From a virus: 64,000 bases of DNA. Under the pieces are notes generated by a model, which was not told where the DNA came from, did no database searches, and was given only the letters and a program-made list of their open reading frames with translations. A program made the translations under genes and the position numbers. This document shows positions 1-57,315 of the stretch, one piece after another. The DNA lies in the IMG/VR virus record IMGVR_UViG_3300029448_000003, positions 1 to 64,000 of that record. The stretch is one strand, 5' to 3'. Positions within the stretch are counted from its first letter, which is position 1, and every line of letters begins with the position of its first letter.

Positions 1-83
1 CAGGGCTTGTGCCTTTATCAAATGATGACTATGCAAAACAAGTTGATGCATTATCAACATTAAAGGAAAACAAACATGATTGA
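1..83 (+). CDS. pstS: 3' end of pstS (partial)
   Basis: Encodes GLVPLSNDDYAKQVDALSTLKENKHD*, the same as the C-terminus of 55876..56916. Confidence 0.9.
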   Translation, partial: GLVPLSNDDYAKQVDALSTLKENKHD

Positions 84-207
84 TTGGGATAAAATTAAAT
101 TTGATATGTGGAATAAAAGATTTGGTGAAGGAACAAACTTTGATTTAGATTATGGTAAGTTACTTATCATAGGTTTACTTATTTATCATATCTTCTTTCA
201 AGGCTAG
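76..207 (+). CDS. 43-aa small membrane protein (MIDWDKIKFDMW...LLIIGLLIYHIFFQG)
   Basis: Read manually; ortholog at 56909..57040 differs mostly by synonymous changes. Confidence 0.8.
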   Translation: MIDWDKIKFDMWNKRFGEGTNFDLDYGKLLIIGLLIYHIFFQG

Positions 208-209
208 TT

Positions 210-482
210 ATGGCAGCTACACTTGATAAATCTAAAATGGCTTGTAATAAGCCAAAGCGAACACCTGACCATCCTACAAAATCACATGTAGTAAAAGCAT
301 GTAAGGGTGGTAAAGAAAAAATTATTCGCTTTGGTCAGCAAGGTGTAAAAGGTGCAGGTAAAAATCCTACAAGTAAAAAAGATAAAGCACGTAAGAAATC
401 CTATTATGCTCGTCATAATGCACAAGATTCTAAACCTGATATATTTAGTGCAAGATATTGGTCACATAAAGTAAAATGGTAA
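210..482 (+). CDS. Basic conserved phage protein
   Basis: 90 aa, K-rich, RFGQQG and RKKSYYARH motifs; tightly packed in operon. Confidence 0.75.
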   Translation: MAATLDKSKMACNKPKRTPDHPTKSHVVKACKGGKEKIIRFGQQGVKGAGKNPTSKKDKARKKSYYARHNAQDSKPDIFSARYWSHKVKW

Positions 483-5466: not shown

Positions 5467-7596
5467 ATGGAAGAAAACGAAAACATAAATATTGAAGATA
5501 ATGCAGCAGCTTTAGATGACATTAAAGATGTATCAGATGAAGATATAGCAACACATAGCTTAGTGCGTTTTGTTACTGAAAAATTTAAAAGAGCAGAAGA
5601 TGCTAGAGATAGTGATGAAGATAGATGGTTAAGAGCCTATAGAAACTATAGAGGTATCTATGGTGCTGACGTACAATTTTCTGAAGCAGAGAAATCTAGA
5701 GTCTTTGTAAAAATAACTAAAACAAAAACACTTGCAGCCTATAGTCAAATTGTTGATGTGTTATTTGCAGGTAATAAGTTTCCAATTAGTATTGAACCTA
5801 CAGAATTACCTGAAGGTGTATCTGAAAATGTTCATATTAATATTGAACCAAATCCAATGGAAGACCAAGAAAAACCACAGGAGCTTCCGTTAGAATTTAA
5901 AGATGGTGAATTACCTAAAGGATATAGAGCAGGTATTCAACTAGGACCTTTAGAACAAAAACTTAGTCAACAAGCAGATAGTATAAAAGAAGGAGTAGGA
6001 ACATCTCCTAAGTCTGTAACATATAGTCCTTCTTTAATTGCAGCAAAATCTATGGAAAAGAAAATAATGGACCAGCTAGAGGAGTCGCATGGTACAAAAC
6101 ATTTACGTAGTACTGCATTTGAGATGGCATTGTTTGGTACTGGTGTAATGAAAGGACCTTTTGCTGTAGATAAAGAGTATCCTAATTGGGGAGAAGATGG
6201 TGAGTATGAAGCTATTGTAAAAACTGTACCTCAAGTTTCTCATGTATCGGTATGGAATTTTTATCCTGACCCTGATGCTAGTCACATGAATGATGCACAG
6301 TATGTTGTAGAACGTCATAAACTTTCTCGTTCACAATTACGAAACTTAAAGAAGCGACCTTTCTTTAGAGATAATGTTATTGAAAGTTGTATACAACAGG
6401 GTGAGTCCTATCAACGAAAAGAATGGGAAAATGATTTAGCTGATTATACAAATGATTTAGATATAGAACGATTTGAAGTATTAGAATACTGGGGTGTTGT
6501 AGATAAAGAACTATTAGAAGTTAATGACATTCCTGTACCTAAAGAATTTAAAGATATTGACGAAGTTCATGCAAATATTTGGATAGTTAATGGTAAATTA
6601 ATTCGTGCTGTATTAAATCCATTTAAACCTTCACACATTCCATACATGGCATCTCCATATGAGTTAAACCCATATTCATTTTTTGGTATTGGTATTGCTG
6701 AAAACATGGATGACACACAAACATTAATGAATGGTTTTATGCGTATGGCAGTTGACAATGCTGTATTGTCTGGAAATCTTTTAATAGAAGTAGATGAAAC
6801 TAATTTAGTTCCGGGACAAGATTTATCTGTGTATCCGGGAAAAATATTCAGGAGACAAGGTGGTGCTCCGGGACAAGCTATCTTTGGAACAAAGTTTCCA
6901 AACGTATCAAATGAAAATATGCAGTTATTTGATAAAGCTAGACAGCTATCTGATGAAAGCACAGGCTTTCCATCCTTTGCTCATGGGCAAACAGGAGTTA
7001 CAGGAGTTGGAAGAACAGCTAGTGGTATCTCAATGTTAATGAATGCTGCAAGTGGTGGTATTAAAACAGTTATTAAGAATGTTGATGACTATTTACTACG
7101 ACCTTTAGGAGAAAATCTGTTTAGATTTAATATGCAGTTTGACTTTGACCCTAAAATTAAAGGGGATTTAGAAGTAAAAGCTAGAGGAACAGAAAGTTTA
7201 ATGGCTAATGAAGTGCGTAGTCAAAGATTAATGCAATTTTTAGGTACAGCAAGCAACCCAGCACTCGCACCATTTGCAAAGTTTCAGTATATTATTAGGG
7301 AAATTGCTAAATCAATGGACTTAGACCCTGATAAAGTTACTAATAACATAGATGAAGCTATGTTACAAGCAAAAATGATGCAGGGAATGCAACAACCACA
7401 ACCTGAACAGCAAGGAAAGCCACAAGCAGGTGCTGATGCTAACGACACAAGTGGTAGTGGTGGTGGACAAGTAGGAGTAGGTCAAGCACCTACACCAAAT
7501 GAACAAGGATTTACAGGTAATGCACAAGGAGAAACAGGTACTGTCGCACCTCAAGCCGCTGGTGGACAACAAACGACTACTGGACAGCTTCAATAA
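5467..7596 (+). CDS. Portal protein (P22-like)
   Basis: 709 aa directly after TerL; FGTGVMK, FYPDP, FFGIGI, RTASGISML motifs; Q-rich tail. Confidence 0.88.
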   Translation: MEENENINIEDNAAALDDIKDVSDEDIATHSLVRFVTEKFKRAEDARDSDEDRWLRAYRNYRGIYGADVQFSEAEKSRVFVKITKTKTLAAYSQIVDVLFAGNKFPISIEPTELPEGVSENVHINIEPNPMEDQEKPQELPLEFKDGELPKGYRAGIQLGPLEQKLSQQADSIKEGVGTSPKSVTYSPSLIAAKSMEKKIMDQLEESHGTKHLRSTAFEMALFGTGVMKGPFAVDKEYPNWGEDGEYEAIVKTVPQVSHVSVWNFYPDPDASHMNDAQYVVERHKLSRSQLRNLKKRPFFRDNVIESCIQQGESYQRKEWENDLADYTNDLDIERFEVLEYWGVVDKELLEVNDIPVPKEFKDIDEVHANIWIVNGKLIRAVLNPFKPSHIPYMASPYELNPYSFFGIGIAENMDDTQTLMNGFMRMAVDNAVLSGNLLIEVDETNLVPGQDLSVYPGKIFRRQGGAPGQAIFGTKFPNVSNENMQLFDKARQLSDESTGFPSFAHGQTGVTGVGRTASGISMLMNAASGGIKTVIKNVDDYLLRPLGENLFRFNMQFDFDPKIKGDLEVKARGTESLMANEVRSQRLMQFLGTASNPALAPFAKFQYIIREIAKSMDLDPDKVTNNIDEAMLQAKMMQGMQQPQPEQQGKPQAGADANDTSGSGGGQVGVGQAPTPNEQGFTGNAQGETGTVAPQAAGGQQTTTGQLQ

Positions 7597-44852: not shown

Positions 44853-45212
44853 TTAGGAATAAAGCAAGTACCTTACTTTTAAAGTACTCCTAATTCCAGT
44901 GCATTCATTTATAATTCTACGACAAACTTTAGAAAATCTGTACTTGGAGTAGGGAATGTATGTGCCTTTATGTGGTCTTATTTGTGGTGCAATATACTCT
45001 TGGAATCCAAAGTCTTTCTTCTGTTTATCTAACAGAATCAATATGTTATTGTCCCAAGTTAAGTCAACATCACACCACTTCAATAAAAAGATTTCTTTAT
45101 ATTGTTGCCGCAATTCATAGGCAAGTTGAATTATTATTCCTATGTTCCTATATTCAAATTTACTGTATGAGTGTGACAAAAATGCAACGATTTCTTTTTT
45201 GTTCCACTTCAT
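44853..45212 (-). pseudogene. Truncated/degenerate tyrosine integrase
   Basis: IIIQLAYELRQQYKEIFLLKWCDVDL resembles box I without the catalytic R; only 119 aa; in the usual integrase position upstream of primase. Confidence 0.55.
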
Positions 45213-49786: not shown

Positions 49787-50008
49787 CTAGCCTGCAAAGT
49801 GCCTTAACTTTGGGTTGGACACCTTTCTTTCAAAGGCTACAGTAAATTTCCCAAAGTGAAATTGTCTAAAGGTGTCACCTACATTGGTAGTAAACCAACC
49901 CCTAGATGTATGTTTACGTTTACGAGCAAAACCTTTTTGCCCTAATAAGTTAAAACGAAAACCTTTAGTGCCATCATTCAATGACTTTGTTGCTAAAATT
50001 AAAAACAT
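49787..50008 (-). CDS. Hypothetical protein
   Basis: 73 aa, LNDGTKGFRFN; AAAGGA RBS. Confidence 0.65.
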   Translation of the reverse strand: MFLILATKSLNDGTKGFRFNLLGQKGFARKRKHTSRGWFTTNVGDTFRQFHFGKFTVAFERKVSNPKLRHFAG

Positions 50009-50027
50009 AATGTTTTTCCTTTCTATA

Positions 50028-50050
50028 AGTGTCCTATATGGGACAGTTTA
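50028..50050. repeat. 23-bp element with TGTCC-N6-GGACA palindrome (copy 1)
   Basis: AGTGTCCTATATGGGACAGTTTA, identical at 51238-51260. Confidence 0.9.
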
Positions 50051-50296
50051 TTGTGTAACATTATTGTTACTCAATTTCTTTTTCAGTAACTTCATTGCAG
50101 TTACTAATAGTTTGTGACTATCTTCTCCACCATATCCACCATAGCTTGTGTTACCATGCCATATGTAATGTGTTGTTTCATCACCCCAATGCTCATAATT
50201 ACCTATGTAACCCTTAGAATACTCGTCACCTAGTAATTCCATTACTATTTCAAGTGCTTGTTTGTTTGTATCTTCCACAATAAAACGTTTCAGCAT
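50048..50296 (-). CDS. Hypothetical early protein
   Basis: 82 aa with RBS; flanked by hairpin and palindrome. Confidence 0.65.
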   Translation of the reverse strand: MLKRFIVEDTNKQALEIVMELLGDEYSKGYIGNYEHWGDETTHYIWHGNTSYGGYGGEDSHKLLVTAMKLLKKKLSNNNVTQ

Positions 50297-50315
50297 TTTG
50301 TTTTCCTTTCTGTTA

Positions 50316-50362
50316 ATAGTTATATGTTACTTTTATATACATTTCAAGTAACATCTAACTAT
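50316..50362 (-). promoter_or_regulatory. Conserved-loop hairpin H1 overlapping TTGAAA-N17-TATAAC promoter
   Basis: 17-bp stem (1 mismatch) closing loop GAAATGTATATAA. Confidence 0.75.
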
Positions 50363-50371
50363 ATTTTATTT

Positions 50372-51013
50372 TTAGTGTTGCAAATATGCAACATCTTTTA
50401 CGTTACTATCCCAACACATACGGCAATCAAGGCACTTGTTGCCTTGCTTTGAGCTAGGACACATTTTGTCTACAACTAAATCCTCGCTAGTCACGACTGT
50501 ACTACTGTGCTTGTGGAACTTATGTGGTAAACCATTAATCATGGTTGCACTAATTCTAACCACAAGATTGCTAGGAAAATCCCCAAACAATTTCTTGTAC
50601 TCTTGCACTATGCTCACCTCTCGTGTGGGCAGCCAATGCCTAACACTAGGTGTATGTTTAGCAATCGTAACAATCATAGTTAAGTGTTCAATGCTTTGCA
50701 AGTCACCACTATCGTGCCACCTAAAGACCTTAGTCTTTGCACAATAGTGCAAGATAAGAAATACCATAGCATCAACCCATTTAGGGTTGTTCATTAGCTT
50801 GTCCATTCTCCTATCCAATGCTTCTTGTACATTGGGGAATGTGTACCTACCTTTGAGTGCATAGCAATCAGCACAAGTAGACATCAAAACTTTACGAAGT
50901 TTACTGCCTACTTTGCATTTAAATGCACTCAATGAATAGCCAAAAGATGGCATCTTAGATGGCTTGGATAAGCCACCTACCTCACTCCATGCTTCTTTAA
51001 CTGTGTTAAACAT
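50372..51013 (-). CDS. GP88-family Cys-rich protein
   Basis: SKMP, C..CYA, FRWHDSGD, HWLPTRE, CP...C..C..CW. Confidence 0.75.
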   Translation of the reverse strand: MFNTVKEAWSEVGGLSKPSKMPSFGYSLSAFKCKVGSKLRKVLMSTCADCYALKGRYTFPNVQEALDRRMDKLMNNPKWVDAMVFLILHYCAKTKVFRWHDSGDLQSIEHLTMIVTIAKHTPSVRHWLPTREVSIVQEYKKLFGDFPSNLVVRISATMINGLPHKFHKHSSTVVTSEDLVVDKMCPSSKQGNKCLDCRMCWDSNVKDVAYLQH

Positions 51014-51018
51014 TATAC

Positions 51019-51213
51019 TTACTCTCCAAAAGTTTCGTTCCATTCGTGTGCAGGAATGCCACTCTTAATGAACTCACGTTCATCCTCCGACAAGTTCGGC
51101 ATAGCATTCTGTATGAGTTCTCCCCCATACCACGCATCAATCTGTGATTGAGTAACGTCAATATCCATTGTGTTTGTTTCACCACTAAATGGTGATGTCT
51201 TTGTTATTATCAT
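51019..51213 (-). CDS. Conserved phage hypothetical protein
   Basis: LIQNAMPNLS.DEREFIKSG. Confidence 0.7.
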   Translation of the reverse strand: MIITKTSPFSGETNTMDIDVTQSQIDAWYGGELIQNAMPNLSEDEREFIKSGIPAHEWNETFGE

Positions 51214-51237
51214 ATTTAACTCCTTTAGTTAAATGTT

Positions 51238-51260
51238 AGTGTCCTATATGGGACAGTTTA
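51238..51260. repeat. 23-bp palindromic element (copy 2)
   Basis: Identical to 50028-50050. Confidence 0.9.
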
Positions 51261-51566
51261 AGTTAGCTTTATTAATAAGAGTGCTAACTCTTCAGTTGGT
51301 AGGTATCCCTTTACCCCACCTTCAAAAGTGCCATCATCTACATAGTTATAATCACTATCTAGAATTGCGACCTCTACTCGTTCTGCGTAGTCACCATACC
51401 TACCACCTATACTATCATAAGGTGCATTCTTATCGTTCTGAACGATAGATATGTAACGATTACCTTTAATAGGTAATACGATTTGATTTGCAGTTTCATC
51501 TCCAAAGTTTTTCTGAAACTTTTTGTTAATTAAATCAGCGAAAGTATAATCCATTTTCATTTTCAA
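51258..51566 (-). CDS. Hypothetical early protein
   Basis: 102 aa; ISIVQ...YG...EVAIL; flanked by hairpin and palindrome. Confidence 0.65.
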   Translation of the reverse strand: MKMKMDYTFADLINKKFQKNFGDETANQIVLPIKGNRYISIVQNDKNAPYDSIGGRYGDYAERVEVAILDSDYNYVDDGTFEGGVKGYLPTEELALLLIKLT

Positions 51567-51576
51567 ACTCCTTATA

Positions 51577-51640
51577 AGTTACATATAAATAAATAAAACA
51601 CTTTTATATACATTTCAAGTGTTTTATTTATTATGTAACT
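51577..51640 (-). promoter_or_regulatory. Conserved-loop hairpin H2
   Basis: 24-bp stem with 3-nt bulge; loop identical to H1. Confidence 0.75.
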
Positions 51641-51642
51641 AA

Positions 51643-51831
51643 TTACTTCTTACACAACGGAATGGCAAGAACACAAACCATACCAAACACTATTAACATA
51701 GTGCCAATTATGGTCAATATCATAGGCTGTACGTTTACATTCCATGCTACATCTATGGATAAACATACAAGTGAAATAGTACCAAGTACTATTGTAAAAT
51801 TACAGATAAAGTTATGTATAATGTTATACAT
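51643..51831 (-). CDS. Two-TM small membrane protein
   Basis: 62 aa hydrophobic. Confidence 0.6.
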   Translation of the reverse strand: MYNIIHNFICNFTIVLGTISLVCLSIDVAWNVNVQPMILTIIGTMLIVFGMVCVLAIPLCKK

Positions 51832-52112
51832 TATAAAGTCTCCAAAAAGTTTGTAAGAATGTTAATACATTCTTCTGTTTCAGTTGGTTGTGTAAACAAC
51901 CCTTTGCTCCCATGACTATACAAAGCCATAGGCTTCATGTCAACGTTCATCTCTTCCTTCTCATATTCCGAAGGAAAGCTAGATGTTACACTAGATGGGT
52001 AATCTAGATTAAAGTTACGATTGCCCTTCTTGGAACAAGAAGTCTTACCCCATCTACGATTGTAAAACAATCTAGGGTCAGGTGGACACTTAGTTACAGA
52101 TACATGAGTCAT
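51831..52112 (-). CDS. Hypothetical early protein
   Basis: 93 aa, AAGGAG RBS. Confidence 0.6.
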   Translation of the reverse strand: MTHVSVTKCPPDPRLFYNRRWGKTSCSKKGNRNFNLDYPSSVTSSFPSEYEKEEMNVDMKPMALYSHGSKGLFTQPTETEECINILTNFLETL

Positions 52113-52139
52113 ATAAAATCTCCTTTTGAGAAAGTAGCG

Positions 52140-52772
52140 TTAAGCTACTTCCTCAGATGTTAACATTTTGATTTGCTCTATAAGAGCATTGATAAGTTCC
52201 TTGTGAGGAACTTGGTGAGTATCAGCTTGAACTAGCATTTCCAATGCTATGTCATCTGCTGATAGTTTCTTCTTAGAAACTTGAAACTGTCCAATATGGG
52301 ACACTTCAGATGATTTATCATCTGTTGTTTCAGTTGTTTTAGATGCTTTAGCATCTGTCTTAGGCTTGTCAGCTTTAGCTGATTCCGTGTCTACTTGCTC
52401 TTGGCTTGGCAAGGTATCTTTGTAATGTTTTCTCATTGCATTTTGCAATGAACCAATATTAGTTCCTTTGAAACCAACCTTCTTAATGAAGGTAGACACA
52501 GTTTCACTGTGTTCAATAAGCCATTCAGATTCAGACGTTCTACGTCTGTCAATAGGTGGAAAGTTGTATTTATCCTTTATCGTTTTACTTAAAACGGATA
52601 CATTTTCAACAGCCTTAATCTGTTTGATTAAGTTTCCAATTCTGTAGTCCAATCCACCATCCTTAATGGATTTAGCAAAACTTCTTTGTTCTGTTTTGAC
52701 GGCTTTCGTCAGAGCTTGTCCTTCATTCTGAAGGGAAGAGATTTGTGATTTGTTGTTTTCGATTTTTGTCAT
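52140..52772 (-). CDS. First early protein (hypothetical)
   Basis: 210 aa, IDRRRTSE..W; first minus-strand gene after strand switch. Confidence 0.7.
   Translation of the reverse strand: MTKIENNKSQISSLQNEGQALTKAVKTEQRSFAKSIKDGGLDYRIGNLIKQIKAVENVSVLSKTIKDKYNFPPIDRRRTSESEWLIEHSETVSTFIKKVGFKGTNIGSLQNAMRKHYKDTLPSQEQVDTESAKADKPKTDAKASKTTETTDDKSSEVSHIGQFQVSKKKLSADDIALEMLVQADTHQVPHKELINALIEQIKMLTSEEVA
52288..52303. repeat. Palindromic element copy 3 (inverted, intragenic)
   Basis: AAAC-TGTCCAATATGGGACA-CT. Confidence 0.75.
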
Positions 52773-52779
52773 GTTAATT

Positions 52780-52839
52780 ACTCCATATATTTTTAAACAC
52801 TTCTCATAAACATTCGAAGTGCTTTAAAAATATTGGAGT
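52780..52839 (-). promoter_or_regulatory. Hairpin H3 sequestering the RBS of the 52772 gene
   Basis: About 22-bp stem including GGAG/CTCC; loop CGAATGTTTATGAG closed by ACTT/AAGT. Confidence 0.7.
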
Positions 52840-52860
52840 TATAATGCTGTTGGTTTTTGG

Positions 52861-52876
52861 TGTCCCATATCGGACA
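52861..52876. repeat. Palindromic element copy 4
   Basis: G-TGTCCCATATCGGACA-GTTT. Confidence 0.75.
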
Positions 52877-52969
52877 GTTTTGTACTCCAACGTAGTTGGG
52901 AACGTCATTTCCTCATAATCATCACTATGTGATGGCATAGGTGACGGCAACTGTGCTTCTTTGCGTGTG

Positions 52970-53055
52970 TCCGGGCATAATGCCTGCCCAAGCGAGAGGG
53001 TAGGGCGAGGGACACCCCCCTGTGGGGGGGTATTGTGTATGAATATATACACAGA
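52970..53055. other. GC-rich G-run/hairpin block at strand switch; candidate genome terminus/packaging site
   Basis: GGGTAGGGCGAGGGACACCCCCCTGTGGGGGGG followed by TGTGTAT-N6-ATACACA. Confidence 0.5.
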
Positions 53056-53144
53056 TTAGGAATAAGGTTGGTAACCACTTACAGAATAAGCGTATACTGT
53101 TGCAAAAGTATCACACCTTTGTACATATTTTTACACAAAGGGGG

Positions 53145-53173
53145 TTGACATAAATATAAAAGTTTGGTATAAT
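53145..53173 (+). promoter_or_regulatory. Consensus sigma70 promoter
   Basis: TTGACA-N17-TATAAT with extended TGn. Confidence 0.9.
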
Positions 53174-53290: not shown

Positions 53291-53319
53291 TTGACAATGA
53301 CTAAAAAATCCGTAAAACT
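53291..53319 (+). promoter_or_regulatory. Second promoter-like motif matching the capsid promoter
   Basis: CTTGACAA-N14-GTAAAACTAA. Confidence 0.5.
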
Positions 53320-53506
53320 AAACTATGACGATAATATTCTTCATAAAACTTATAACTCTGTGCTAAAACATGGAGACCTACGTGCTGTACATATACCACA
53401 TTCATCTGTACATTACATTAGAGCACTCATAGAACGTGATACAGGAGTGCGTTATTCTCTATCTCATGTAGAGAATGCCATGAAAGCCGAAGGCTGGACA
53501 GAATAA
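53297..53506 (+). CDS. Conserved hypothetical protein
   Basis: HIPHSSVHYIRALIE..TG..YSL.HVE.AM..EG. Confidence 0.65.
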   Translation: MTKKSVKLNYDDNILHKTYNSVLKHGDLRAVHIPHSSVHYIRALIERDTGVRYSLSHVENAMKAEGWTE

Positions 53507-55669: not shown

Positions 55670-55879
55670 ATGTGGATTCCAGTAATAACAATACTATGGG
55701 CATTAGGTGAAAATGCTACGTGGGTAAATTTTCCAATGGTAAATTTTCCATTTACAACACAAGATAGATGTCAAGAATATGTAGCAAGGGTTAGAAGTAG
55801 TATAACTAAAGACCCTCAATATTTAGAAGGGTATAGTGTATGTGTAGAGATACCTAGTAAAAAAGGAGAAGCAACATGA
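55670..55879 (+). CDS. Small Cys-pair protein
   Basis: F.T.DRC.....G.SVCV. Confidence 0.6.
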   Translation: MWIPVITILWALGENATWVNFPMVNFPFTTQDRCQEYVARVRSSITKDPQYLEGYSVCVEIPSKKGEAT

Positions 55880-56916
55880 ATAAAATGATTTATACATTTA
55901 GTATATTTTTAACTTTAGTAGGCACTATATCTAGTGCTGTCGCAAGAGAACAAATAAGGATAGTCGGTTCTAGTACTGTTTATCCATTTTCAACAATCGT
56001 TGCAGAGAAATTTGCACAACAAGGAAATCCAGCTCCTATTGTAGAATCAACAGGTTCAGGTGGTGGAATGAAATTATTTTGTGCTGGTGTAGGTTTAGAA
56101 CATCCAGATATTACAAACGCATCAAGAGCAATTAAAGATAAAGAAGCTACAACTTGTAAGAAAAATGGTGTTGCATTTACAGAGTTTGTTGTAGGTAATG
56201 ATGGACTTGCATTTGCAAATTCAAACGAAGGACAAAAATTTAGTATTTCTATTGCACATATAGCAGCGGCACTTGCAAAAGAACTCCCTAAAGATGGGTC
56301 TATGCAAGATAATTTTTTGATGACTTGGGATGAAGTAGATGCTTATGTGCATAAACAAATGGGTCATCCGATTTTAAATTTACCAAATCAAAAGATTGCA
56401 ATTATGATACCACCACCAACCTCTGGAACAAGAGATGCAATGGGTTCTTTGTTTATGAAGAATGGTTGGAAGAAACTAGGGTTATATTCTGGTGACACGA
56501 AAGGTGGATATAAAGTATTAAGAGAAGATGGTGTTGCAATAGAGATGGGCGAAAACGATAATTTAATAGTAGAAAAATTAGTTGCAGATTCAAATTTATT
56601 TGGTGTTTTTGGTTATTCCTTTTTTGACCAAAATAGAGATAAAGTCCAATCCTCTATAATTGATAATATAGAATTAACTTTTGATAATATTGCATCATAT
56701 CAATATCCGGGTGCTAGACCATTATTCTTTTATGTAAAGAATGACCATATTTATGCAATACCAAACATGTTAAGTTATGTTGAAGAATTTGTGTCAGAGA
56801 GGGCTATGAGTATTAATGGATATTTATTTCCAGCAGGGCTTGTGCCTTTATCAAATGATGACTATGCAAAACAAGTTGATGCATTATCAACATTAAAGGA
56901 AAACAAACATGATTAA
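55876..56916 (+). CDS. pstS: Phosphate ABC transporter substrate-binding protein (auxiliary metabolic gene)
   Basis: Signal peptide; IRIVGSSTVYPF, ESTGSGGG.K.FC, DITNASR, SGTRD, END, YP.ARPLFFY. Confidence 0.93.
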   Translation: MNKMIYTFSIFLTLVGTISSAVAREQIRIVGSSTVYPFSTIVAEKFAQQGNPAPIVESTGSGGGMKLFCAGVGLEHPDITNASRAIKDKEATTCKKNGVAFTEFVVGNDGLAFANSNEGQKFSISIAHIAAALAKELPKDGSMQDNFLMTWDEVDAYVHKQMGHPILNLPNQKIAIMIPPPTSGTRDAMGSLFMKNGWKKLGLYSGDTKGGYKVLREDGVAIEMGENDNLIVEKLVADSNLFGVFGYSFFDQNRDKVQSSIIDNIELTFDNIASYQYPGARPLFFYVKNDHIYAIPNMLSYVEEFVSERAMSINGYLFPAGLVPLSNDDYAKQVDALSTLKENKHD

Positions 56917-57040
56917 TTGGGATAAAATTAAATTTGATATGTGGAATAAAAGATTTGGCGAAGGAACTAATTTTGATTTAGACTATGGTAAGTTACTTAT
57001 TATAGGTCTATTAGTGTATCACATCTTTTTTCAAGGTTAG
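56909..57040 (+). CDS. 43-aa membrane protein (B ortholog of 76..207)
   Basis: Read manually. Confidence 0.8.
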   Translation: MINWDKIKFDMWNKRFGEGTNFDLDYGKLLIIGLLVYHIFFQG

Positions 57041-57042
57041 CT

Positions 57043-57315
57043 ATGGTTTTAAAAAGACATCAAAATCCTTCTGGTGGTTTAAACGCTGCAGGTCGAGCAC
57101 ACTTTAAAAAGAAAGACGGCAGTAATCTTAAACCACCTGTAAAAGCAGGAGTTAATCCTAGAAGAGTTTCTTTTGCTGCACGATTTGCAGGTATGAAAGG
57201 ACCTATGAAAAAACCTAATGGTGAACCTACACGTAAGGCATTAGCGTTAAAAGCATGGGGTTTTCGTAATGAGCAATCAGCGAGAAATTTCGCAAACAGG
57301 CACAAAAAAACATGA
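57043..57315 (+). CDS. Basic phage protein (DUF6321-like)
   Basis: NPSGGLNAAGR...NLKPP...RR.SF.ARF.GM. Confidence 0.7.
   Translation: MVLKRHQNPSGGLNAAGRAHFKKKDGSNLKPPVKAGVNPRRVSFAARFAGMKGPMKKPNGEPTRKALALKAWGFRNEQSARNFANRHKKT

Follow-up and report, generated by a model that had tools for sequence, protein, structure and literature searches.

At the head of the early gene block of a marine phage genome, long hairpins and short palindromes punctuate a series of small genes, which raises the question of whether these repeats serve to exchange the genes or to control them. The locus lies in the first 64,000 nucleotides (the window) of the IMG/VR record IMGVR_UViG_3300029448_000003, which is 110,914 bp long. 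A preliminary description had seen there a repeated unit of hairpin, ribosome-binding site, single gene and palindrome, and had proposed standardized, exchangeable expression cassettes for host-takeover genes. Here, the long AT-rich hairpin is referred to as LH and the short palindrome, a dyad, as SL. In the reading preferred here, LH and SL together make up a conserved module that controls early genes in one HMO-2011-type clade, with a slot for small genes between the two parts; this reading is given about an even chance (a probability of roughly 0.5). The build of the elements, their conservation, covariation and positions, and the indels next to them are observed, whereas promoter activity, the binding factor, action of the SL in DNA and not in RNA, and the mechanism of insertion are inferred.

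According to blastn, the record contains a head-to-tail fusion of two phage genomes that are related and collinear, namely, A (1-56832) and B (56833-110914). The elements sit at the head of the minus-strand block of A, which starts at about 52.9 kb and runs leftwards through small early genes, a C5 methylase, a primase, a helicase, the DNA polymerase and a ribonucleotide reductase. A is a podovirus, and its DNA polymerase shows 62% identity with the enzymes of HMO-2011, a Puniceispirillum phage, and of the Roseobacter phages CRP-345 and CRP-1, so the HMO-2011-type label given to it earlier is correct. Phages of this type are among the most abundant marine viruses, and the known hosts of the group are Alphaproteobacteria. 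Near-identical early-region DNA is contained in marine metagenome runs from 10 studies (2014-2025), and the phage is widespread. A blastn search of the region against cultured phages gave no match, relatives being detectable only at the protein level; they were retrieved via the neighbouring GP88-family gene, and cultured phages were added.

The conserved unit of hairpin, dyad and gene start

Three LHs with a conserved loop of 12-13 nt, H1 to H3, are present in the early block of A (Table 1) and are among the longest hairpins of the entire record. All three, including the third, related hairpin, lie where they were first placed, with predicted folding energies of -14.5 (H1), -22.5 (H2) and -23.8 kcal/mol (H3) and z-scores of -4.5, -6.1 and -7.0, respectively, against dinucleotide shuffles. 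A 21-nt core, ACTTGAAATGTATATAAAAGT, is the same in H1 and H2 and has only these two occurrences in the whole 110.9-kb record; the loop of H3 is a close variant of theirs. LHs were also found in the uncultured relatives L042, L030, L040, L043 and L045, and in HMO-2011, CRP-345 and CRP-1. Across genomes the stems are unrelated, while the loop follows the consensus GAAT.T.T.TGA and is usually closed by CTT/AAG. In 16 copies from eight genomes, 88% of the stem cells pair, compared with 54% in shuffles, and double changes occur at all 14 pairs, so the structure of the LH is under selection. When whole genomes are scanned with a covariance model of these 16 LHs, matches appear only in the early region and on the sense strand, and a copy in CRP-1 on which the model was not trained is recovered as well. 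For two loop types, the exact loop core (18-19 nt) was found in 93 and 26 IMG/VR contigs, which yielded a largely independent set of 136 LH copies, with 94 non-redundant hairpin-bearing copies for the layout counts. Both elements are genuine, structured features that HMO-2011-type relatives have conserved. Neither LH nor SL was found in CRP-2, CRP-207, HTVC033P or the part of B's early region that is present in the record, which made B unsuitable as a comparator, and an Rfam search of 49.5-53.6 kb (E <= 1) returned nothing meaningful.

The order of the parts differs from the one first proposed. LH, a gap of 15-37 nt, SL, Shine-Dalgarno (SD) sequence and ATG follow one another in 61 of the 94 copies, and also in HMO-2011 (twice), CRP-1, L040 (twice), L030, L042, L043 and L045. 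The sequence of hairpin, gene and palindrome that had been taken for the unit occurs in only 11, and in 21 a gene follows the LH with no SL after it. In ten genomes, 27 of 43 SLs have an SD and a start codon within 35 nt downstream, as against 24% of random positions (p = 5e-8). By these layouts and this proximity the SL goes with the gene that follows it, on that gene's 5' side, and its overlap with stop codons in A is incidental. The overlap itself was described correctly: two indistinguishable copies of the 23-bp element TAAACTGTCCCATATAGGACACT stand at 50028-50050 and at 51238-51260, and each copy contains the TAA stop of the upstream open reading frame (ORF). The SL is moreover kept per gene family across genomes, namely with GP88, with family F10 and with the 64-aa gene of the phrog_20898 family, which it precedes in A, L040, L043 and L045.

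Table 1. Elements, genes and promoter of genome A discussed in the text (window coordinates)
Feature	Position	Strand	Description
LH H1	50316..50362	-	17-bp arms with 1 mismatch, 13-nt loop GAAATGTATATAA; covariance model 45.5 bits
LH H2	51577..51640	-	Longest LH; 24 pairs, 3-nt bulge; covariance model 47.1 bits
LH H3	52780..52839	-	Precedes first early gene; loop GAATGTTTATGA; covariance model 44.6 bits
SL copy 1	52858..52880	-	Core TGTCCGATATGGGACA at 52861-52876; ends conserved non-coding block; 20 nt upstream of H3
SL copy 2	52284..52306	+	Inside first early gene; inverted relative to other copies, flanks included
SL copy 3	51238..51260	-	23-bp element; holds TAA of 100-aa gene; 26 nt upstream of ATG of 64-aa gene
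SL copy 4	50028..50050	-	Same 23-bp element; holds TAA of 82-aa gene; 21 nt upstream of ATG of 73-aa gene
First early gene (F02), 210 aa	52140..52772	-	Helical N-terminal domain, disordered linker with internal SL, small helical C-terminal domain
100-aa orphan gene	51258..51566	-	Own SD; between H2 and SL copy 3; flanked by 7-nt direct repeat TAACTTA
GP88-family gene (PF17338)	50372..51043	-	Anchor for finding relatives
82-aa gene (family F19)	50048..50296	-	Between H1 and SL copy 4
Short recombinase ORF	44853..45212	-	Homologue of middle third of HMO-2011-type integrase; 5 kb downstream of the elements
Divergent promoter	53145..53173	+	Perfect sigma-70 consensus: TTGACA, 17 nt, TATAAT, with TG

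The long hairpin as a putative promoter

The motif (C)TTGAnn stands at the stem/loop junction in 12-13 of 17 LH copies, and a hexamer starting with TA lies 16-17 nt downstream of it in the 3' arm. This hexamer fits TANAWC, mostly as TATAAC, in 69 of the 136 independent copies, over 32 distinct 3' arms. In H1, e.g., the -35-like TTGAAA at the junction is followed by TATAAC 17 nt downstream and, 19 nt later, by the ATG of the 82-aa gene. These boxes match the RpoD consensus of Caulobacter (-35 TTGaCgS, -10 GCtANAWC; PMC8144410) at the sequence level. In addition, 25 of 34 positions agree between the divergent promoter at 53145 and the loop and 3' arm of H1, the spacer word ATATAAAAGT included, and the promoter is, judged from this alignment, their paralogue. 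Loop-edge TTGAnn, TANAWC, the RpoD match and the paralogous promoter together suggest that the LH is most likely a promoter inside an inverted repeat. In the proposed mechanism, the host RNA polymerase would use the -35 box (TTGAnn) at the 5' edge of the loop and the alphaproteobacterial-type -10 box (TANAWC) in the 3' arm, the long AT-rich repeat being wrapped around this promoter. Transcripts from the LH's own promoter would lack the 5' arm, and read-through transcripts would carry the full hairpin and be attenuated or processed, following the logic of the promoter/stem-loop elements (PeSLs) of T4-type phages. In H3, the full hairpin also pairs the SD (GGAG) with CTCC at the base of its stem.

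Several observations weigh against this reading. The putative LH promoters are missed by a simple scan for E. coli-type promoters, as their -10 ends in C and has no T at the last position, and the metagenome runs consist of contigs, with just two short ones from RNA libraries, that show no transcript starts or ends. In L040, the first LH (786-827) has no TTGA in its loop and lies just downstream of a separate promoter (TTGACA-17-TATATT); the 3' half of the loop (..TRTGA) is conserved as well, beyond the -35-like part, and this calls for another explanation, possibly a role at the RNA level.

The strongest rival places the action of both elements in RNA: the LH would be a 5'-untranslated or intercistronic hairpin, i.e., an RNase III-type site or a protein-bound loop, and the SL a stem-loop. 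Such a function would suit the occurrence of every LH copy on the sense strand, the conservation of the whole 12-13-nt loop, the position of the first LH of L040 behind another promoter, and the pairing of the SD by the stem base of H3. It leaves the recurrence of TATAAC at a fixed distance unexplained, however, and the stem length of the LHs varies between 9 and 24 bp, with the shorter stems below what RNase III needs; in comparison with T7-type RNase III sites, which are hairpins of about two helical turns between early genes and closely precede the next SD, H2 and H3 have 23-24 pairs and other LHs as few as 9. Together with the evidence on the SL given below, this makes an RNA-level explanation of both elements the less likely one, and the promoter reading of the LH is retained.

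Two further observations concern the hairpins. Close pairs of genomes keep their LH stems and differ in a discrete loop type, GATACTTTAGTGA versus GAATATTTGTGA or GAAATGTATATGA, as seen in CRP-1 (L121) 989-1028 versus CRP-345 (L120) 817-856 and in L043 3529-3569 versus L045 7733-7773. Loop types are shared by distant genomes as well, and loop type does not follow phylogeny. A 12-bp hairpin (GAAGTAGC..GCTACTTTC) at 52125-52157 on the minus strand of A overlaps the F02 stop codon and directly adjoins the SD of the gene behind it; at this place L030 has a conserved-loop LH instead.

The palindrome as a dyad

In A, the SL is a dyad of 14-16 bp, and the pattern AACTGTCCnATATnGGACAC matches four sites in the record (50029, 51239, 52286 and 52860), all within 50.0-52.9 kb, compared with 0.04 expected by chance. 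Besides the two identical 23-bp copies, palindromes had been reported upstream of H3 and inside the first early gene; both are there, and the internal one is inverted. The SL is present in every close relative, with arms that are lineage-specific: TGTCC-N6-GGACA in A, TGTCCAACATTGGACA in L042, AGTCCGATGTCGGACA in L030, AGTCC-N6-GGACT in L043, L044, L045 and HMO-2011, GTCCAAnnTTGGAC in CRP-1 and CRP-345, and TTCCG-N5/6-CGGAA in L040. Over 35 aligned copies the consensus is GTCC-N-A-NN-T-N-GGAC with GTCC/GGAC invariant, and the symmetric A6 and T9 are conserved in 34 and 29 of them, respectively, though unable to pair around the 2-nt centre. Variants change both arms symmetrically (TTCCG..CGGAA; CCCC..GGGG). 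Each genome has 3-7 copies within the first 3-4.5 kb of its early region, and in L040 one of them lies upstream of the only recognisable promoter.

The unpairable A6 and T9, the symmetric changes, the inverted internal copy and this copy in L040 favour recognition of duplex DNA by a dimer, and recognition at the DNA level is considered somewhat likelier than at the RNA level. The SL, 15-37 nt past the LH and about 13-34 nt before the start codon, would then be bound by a phage-encoded dimeric regulator and act, when bound, as an operator or roadblock of early transcription; additional copies stand where the early region starts and within F02, its first gene. The internal operators of lac and gal are further parallels for such a role.

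An RNA operator would instead fit three findings that speak against recognition of the DNA. The distance from SL to start codon is fairly constant; in L043 and L045, SL and the start codon of GP88 overlap; and the distant GP88 phages L053 and L102 have unrelated GC hairpins at its place. Under the RNA-level rival, the SL would form a short stem-loop near the 5' end and act on translation as an operator, stabilise the RNA, or work as a boxB-like site of antitermination recognised by a phage protein specific to the lineage. Its tie to SD and start codon, the overlap with AUG, the hairpins of the distant relatives and, weakly, a contig from an RNA library that ends at the SL centre agree with this. 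On the other hand, the arms pair over only 4-6 bp (-5.8 to -9.5 kcal/mol), the dyad includes positions that cannot pair around the 2-nt centre, the internal copy of A is inverted with its flanks, and the L040 copy precedes the promoter. As for lambdoid nut sites (boxA + boxB), where an N-type protein binds a short RNA hairpin with a GNRA-like pentaloop, the SL arms are lineage-specific like boxB, but the dyad reaches down to a 2-nt centre, so the SL has no fixed pentaloop, and no N-like protein was identified. On balance, a dyad read in duplex DNA is somewhat preferred for the SL.

Some observations on the palindromes stand apart from this argument. The contig ending at the SL centre comes from a marine metatranscriptome run and covers exactly the 73-aa gene (49788-50039), a contig-level hint. 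Repeated G+C-rich hairpins of unrelated sequence (CCGGGG…CCCCGG; GTGGG…CCCAC) occur in L053 (5541-6170), L102 (6097-7400) and L111 (2541-5115), with AACAC before them and the SD of successive small genes within about 10 nt after them, i.e., in an SL-like layout with a different sequence. A slightly variant SL (TGTCCAAGGTTGGACG) is found in the 3' part of the integrase gene, at the same place in CRP-1 (6868-6881) and CRP-345 (7079-7092). In A, the right arm of SL copy 1, GGGACA, lies 17 nt from TATAAC and could form a promoter with it. Other identities for the SL were rejected. As an intrinsic terminator it lacks a U-tract on the sense strand and has, in A, only a weak GTTT tail on the antisense strand; none of the pho box, the CcrM site and the alphaproteobacterial LexA box fits the dyad. 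Furthermore, 17 IMG/VR contigs with the exact SL pattern were discarded as relatives, since these matches are mostly one conserved coding sequence in unrelated phages and thus due to chance.

A slot for small genes

In two cases, an indel of a single gene falls cleanly and precisely into the interval from LH to SL. The 100-aa gene of A, with its own SD, is absent from L042, where H2 abuts the SL, and the junctions are bounded by the 7-nt direct repeat TAACTTA. Likewise, gp03 is inserted between LH and SL in CRP-345 compared with CRP-1. At least 4-6 gene families, at least four of them within the independent set, occupy the LH-SL slot, in agreement with the earlier observation in A that different genes share the same frame. 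Family F19 (the 82-aa gene of A) has the same position in L042; in L030 it is located some 600 nt farther downstream and is not accompanied by the elements. The whole early region is hypervariable. It is concluded that insertions recur in the LH-SL spacer because it is a slot permissive for expression, and that selection plus illegitimate recombination suffices to explain it; a dedicated shuffling mechanism is possible but unsupported. Slot genes with their own SD would be gained and lost repeatedly via microhomology or illegitimate recombination, with no dedicated recombinase, and the two small genes that A holds between LH and SL would give its early block the look of a cassette array.

A true mobile-cassette system, in which LH and SL are recombination sites (homologous, as in PeSLs, or site-specific) that shuffle single host-takeover genes, would likewise account for the two indels and for the number of families in the slot, as well as for F19 standing in the slot in A and L042 and elsewhere in L030. 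It could also explain why H2 is 98.6% identical between A and L042 over 70 nt amid flanks that are about 75% identical or unrelated, why loop types are swapped between close pairs, and why an X8 contig departs from A just downstream of H2; the build of the SL, with short inverted arms and a 2-6-bp centre, resembles recombinase core sites. However, synteny breaks are not enriched at the elements: adjacent-gene synteny, based on crude ORF calls, is broken at 19 of 28 element junctions versus 101 of 133 junctions without elements (Fisher p = 0.47). Of the proposal that breakpoints map to the elements, the two indels thus stand and a general enrichment does not. The insertion in A is bounded by 7-nt microhomology and not by two copies of one element. 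Excised circles or deletions between 50028 and 51238 had been suggested as a sign of mobility; the contigs of four metagenome runs, which can miss rare forms, contain no such joints between these two direct SL copies, and no others at the elements.

Nor do the elements track an intact integrase, and a link between SL and integrase was rejected. They occur with a full-length integrase in HMO-2011, CRP-1, CRP-345, L040 and L043-45 and with only a truncated homologue in A, L030 and L042, and B has an intact integrase yet neither element in the part of its early region that is present; the possible tie to the recombinase ORF at 44853..45212 was therefore dropped. The empty LH-SL module dominates, and selection alone predicts insertion at one of the few non-coding, promoter-proximal spots. 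Mobile cassettes with their own recombination sites are improbable; what is kept of the exchangeable cassettes is the gain and loss of single genes between LH and SL, and not dedicated shuffling. In one DNA run, a contig matches A through H2 and departs at about 51557, where the 100-aa gene begins, which is a contig-level hint.

Comparison with known systems

The closest functional analogue is the PeSL (promoter-early stem-loop) of T4-type myoviruses (Arbiol et al. 2010, PMC2839356; Comeau et al. 2014, PMC4122927), and its mention in the preliminary description was apt. Both are composite intergenic elements with a sigma-70-like early promoter, a stem-loop overlapping the -35/-10 boxes, an SD and a start codon, and both are repeated in a hypervariable early region that is rich in small orphan genes and in which single-gene indels adjoin the elements. 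Promoter boxes of the PeSL type are present in the LH at the sequence level (TTGAnn at the loop edge, TANAWC or a TA hexamer 16-17 nt on). As regards the terminator or attenuator action of PeSLs, what is seen in the LH is a covarying stem-loop that has no U-tract. The present system is an analogue and not a member: it belongs to a podovirus of marine Alphaproteobacteria and not to the hyperplastic regions of T4-type myoviruses; PeSL stems are short and G/C-rich, in contrast to the long, AT-rich LH, whose -35 lies in the conserved loop of 12-13 nt; a second downstream element, the dyad SL, is added; and neither mini-circles nor element-to-element recombination were seen in the contigs of the four runs, nor are breakpoints enriched.

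In architecture, the closest analogue is the pair of start-associated sequence (SAS) and extended start-associated sequence (ESAS) of Cluster K mycobacteriophages (Pope et al. 2011, PMC3203893). The SAS is a short repeat upstream of many gene starts, a subset of which is preceded by imperfect 17-bp inverted repeats with a 4-13-bp spacer; the function of both is unknown in print (PMC3203893). LH and SL share with them the two-part layout, the single orientation and the retention per gene family across genomes, and the layout agrees in numbers as well, 27 of 43 SLs lying within 35 nt of SD and start and the LH 15-37 nt upstream of the SL. The sequences are unrelated, however. The SAS (GGGATAGGAGCCC) is asymmetric and includes the SD, whereas the SL is a dyad upstream of it; the ESAS has no conserved loop or promoter-like boxes, and the hosts are actinobacteria.

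As repeated, short, operator-like sites in small intra-operon gaps, SLs also resemble the L5 stoperators of Cluster A and the palindrome of Cluster O. The stoperators are asymmetric, number about 30 per genome, and block elongation when bound by the repressor (cited in PMC3203893). The Cluster O palindrome has 17 bp, with 7-bp arms around 3 bp, and more than 30 copies over the whole genome (Cresawn et al. 2015, PMC4351075). Invariant arms and a variable centre are common to the SL and the latter, but the SL has only 3-7 copies, is confined to the early region and is coupled to a hairpin promoter. Integron attC sites, to which the hairpins had been likened, are also folded, imperfect palindromes with variable stems at gene boundaries, but none of the features that define attC is present: there is no IntI, attI or Pc, and in A, L030 and L042 the sole homologue of a phage integrase is a truncated one; the SL flanks lack R''/L''-L'/R' boxes (RYYYAAC / GTTRRRY); and attC marks the 3' end of a promoterless cassette, whereas these elements stand 5' of genes as putative promoter plus operator, with 61 of 94 modules empty.

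No description of these motifs or of early-gene timing in HMO-2011-type phages was found in the literature. Hairpin punctuation as a kind is not new; the two-part, clade-wide version is. The motif, present in three cultured phages (HMO-2011, CRP-1 and CRP-345) and more than 100 environmental contigs, offers a handle for mapping early promoters in SAR116 and Roseobacter hosts and a bait for the regulator, and it marks early regions in metagenomic contigs. It also provides a second system, beside the PeSLs of T4, in which to ask whether regulatory punctuation marks channel gene flux or mark places where insertion is tolerated.

Candidate regulators and further features of the region

In a bolder and improbable extension of the module reading, LH-SL would be the cis part of a clade-wide early regulon, in which a phage-encoded dimeric regulator, maybe F02, reads the SL dyads at each hairpin-wrapped early promoter and the gap serves as a docking slot. 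If this is true, co-infecting relatives would gain, lose and exchange small host-takeover genes by way of the slot, as in a cassette platform that works with no integrase. F02 may be that regulator, as its gene always carries an SL and its N-terminal domain weakly resembles KorB/ParB DNA-binding domains. The gene co-occurs with LH/SL elements in eight of nine genomes, and its internal SL is kept in eight genomes in one reading frame (TCC = Ser, GGA = Gly) within the disordered linker. The fold matches argue against too close an identification: no match exceeds Z 4.9, and that with the DNA-binding domain of KorB (Z 4.8) is tied with unrelated helical proteins. F02 has no Pfam or PHROG family and no PDB sequence match, Foldseek gave nothing at E <= 0.001, and an Atlas lead to DUF3102 reached only 0.92. 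The search for an SL-binding protein, which covered F02 and a 71-aa protein, yielded no DNA-binding protein, a further point against a dimeric regulator.

The 71-aa protein (53291-53506, plus strand) is encoded by the first gene behind the perfect consensus promoter, where translation probably begins not at the TTG but at an ATG two codons further on. Homologues with 46-76% identity are conserved in HMO-2011, CRP-1, CRP-2, CRP-207, CRP-345 and uncultured relatives, and the protein has a sub-threshold winged helix-turn-helix match (E = 0.0012). Because it is present also in CRP-2 and CRP-207, which lack SLs, it is unsupported as a specific SL binder, which again counts against the dimeric-regulator reading.

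The recombinase ORF of A, described before as decayed, encodes about 120 aa homologous to residues ~100-235 of the HMO-2011 integrase. As a short ORF it is kept in A, L030 (12901-13242) and L042 (10724-11089), and it may therefore be a retained truncated form and not a product of recent decay.

Upstream of F02, between the divergent transcription units, lies a conserved non-coding block (52880-53110, minus strand) common to A, L042, L030 and L040 and without an Rfam match. Its 5' part is invariant (…AATCTGTGTA..TAT.CA…), as is GGAGTACAAAA directly before the first SL, and its middle is variable and G+C-rich, with a C-run/G-run hairpin at 53014-53031. Possible roles of the block are those of a leader RNA or of a site for packaging or for the genome terminus.

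A and B are syntenic at about 70-80% identity (blastn), and their early regions are non-homologous. At 56834, the sequence of the initial 213 nt of A is found again, 93% identical (window 1-213 versus 56834-57046). The two-genome record (~55 kb each) is rated 100% complete in IMG/VR, and B is cut short at the record end. The join of A and B falls inside a pstS (PBP_like_2) gene on the plus strand (55876-56916), and the PstS phosphate-binding protein that it encodes (PF12849, E = 8e-35) is an auxiliary metabolic gene product carried by this HMO-2011-type phage.

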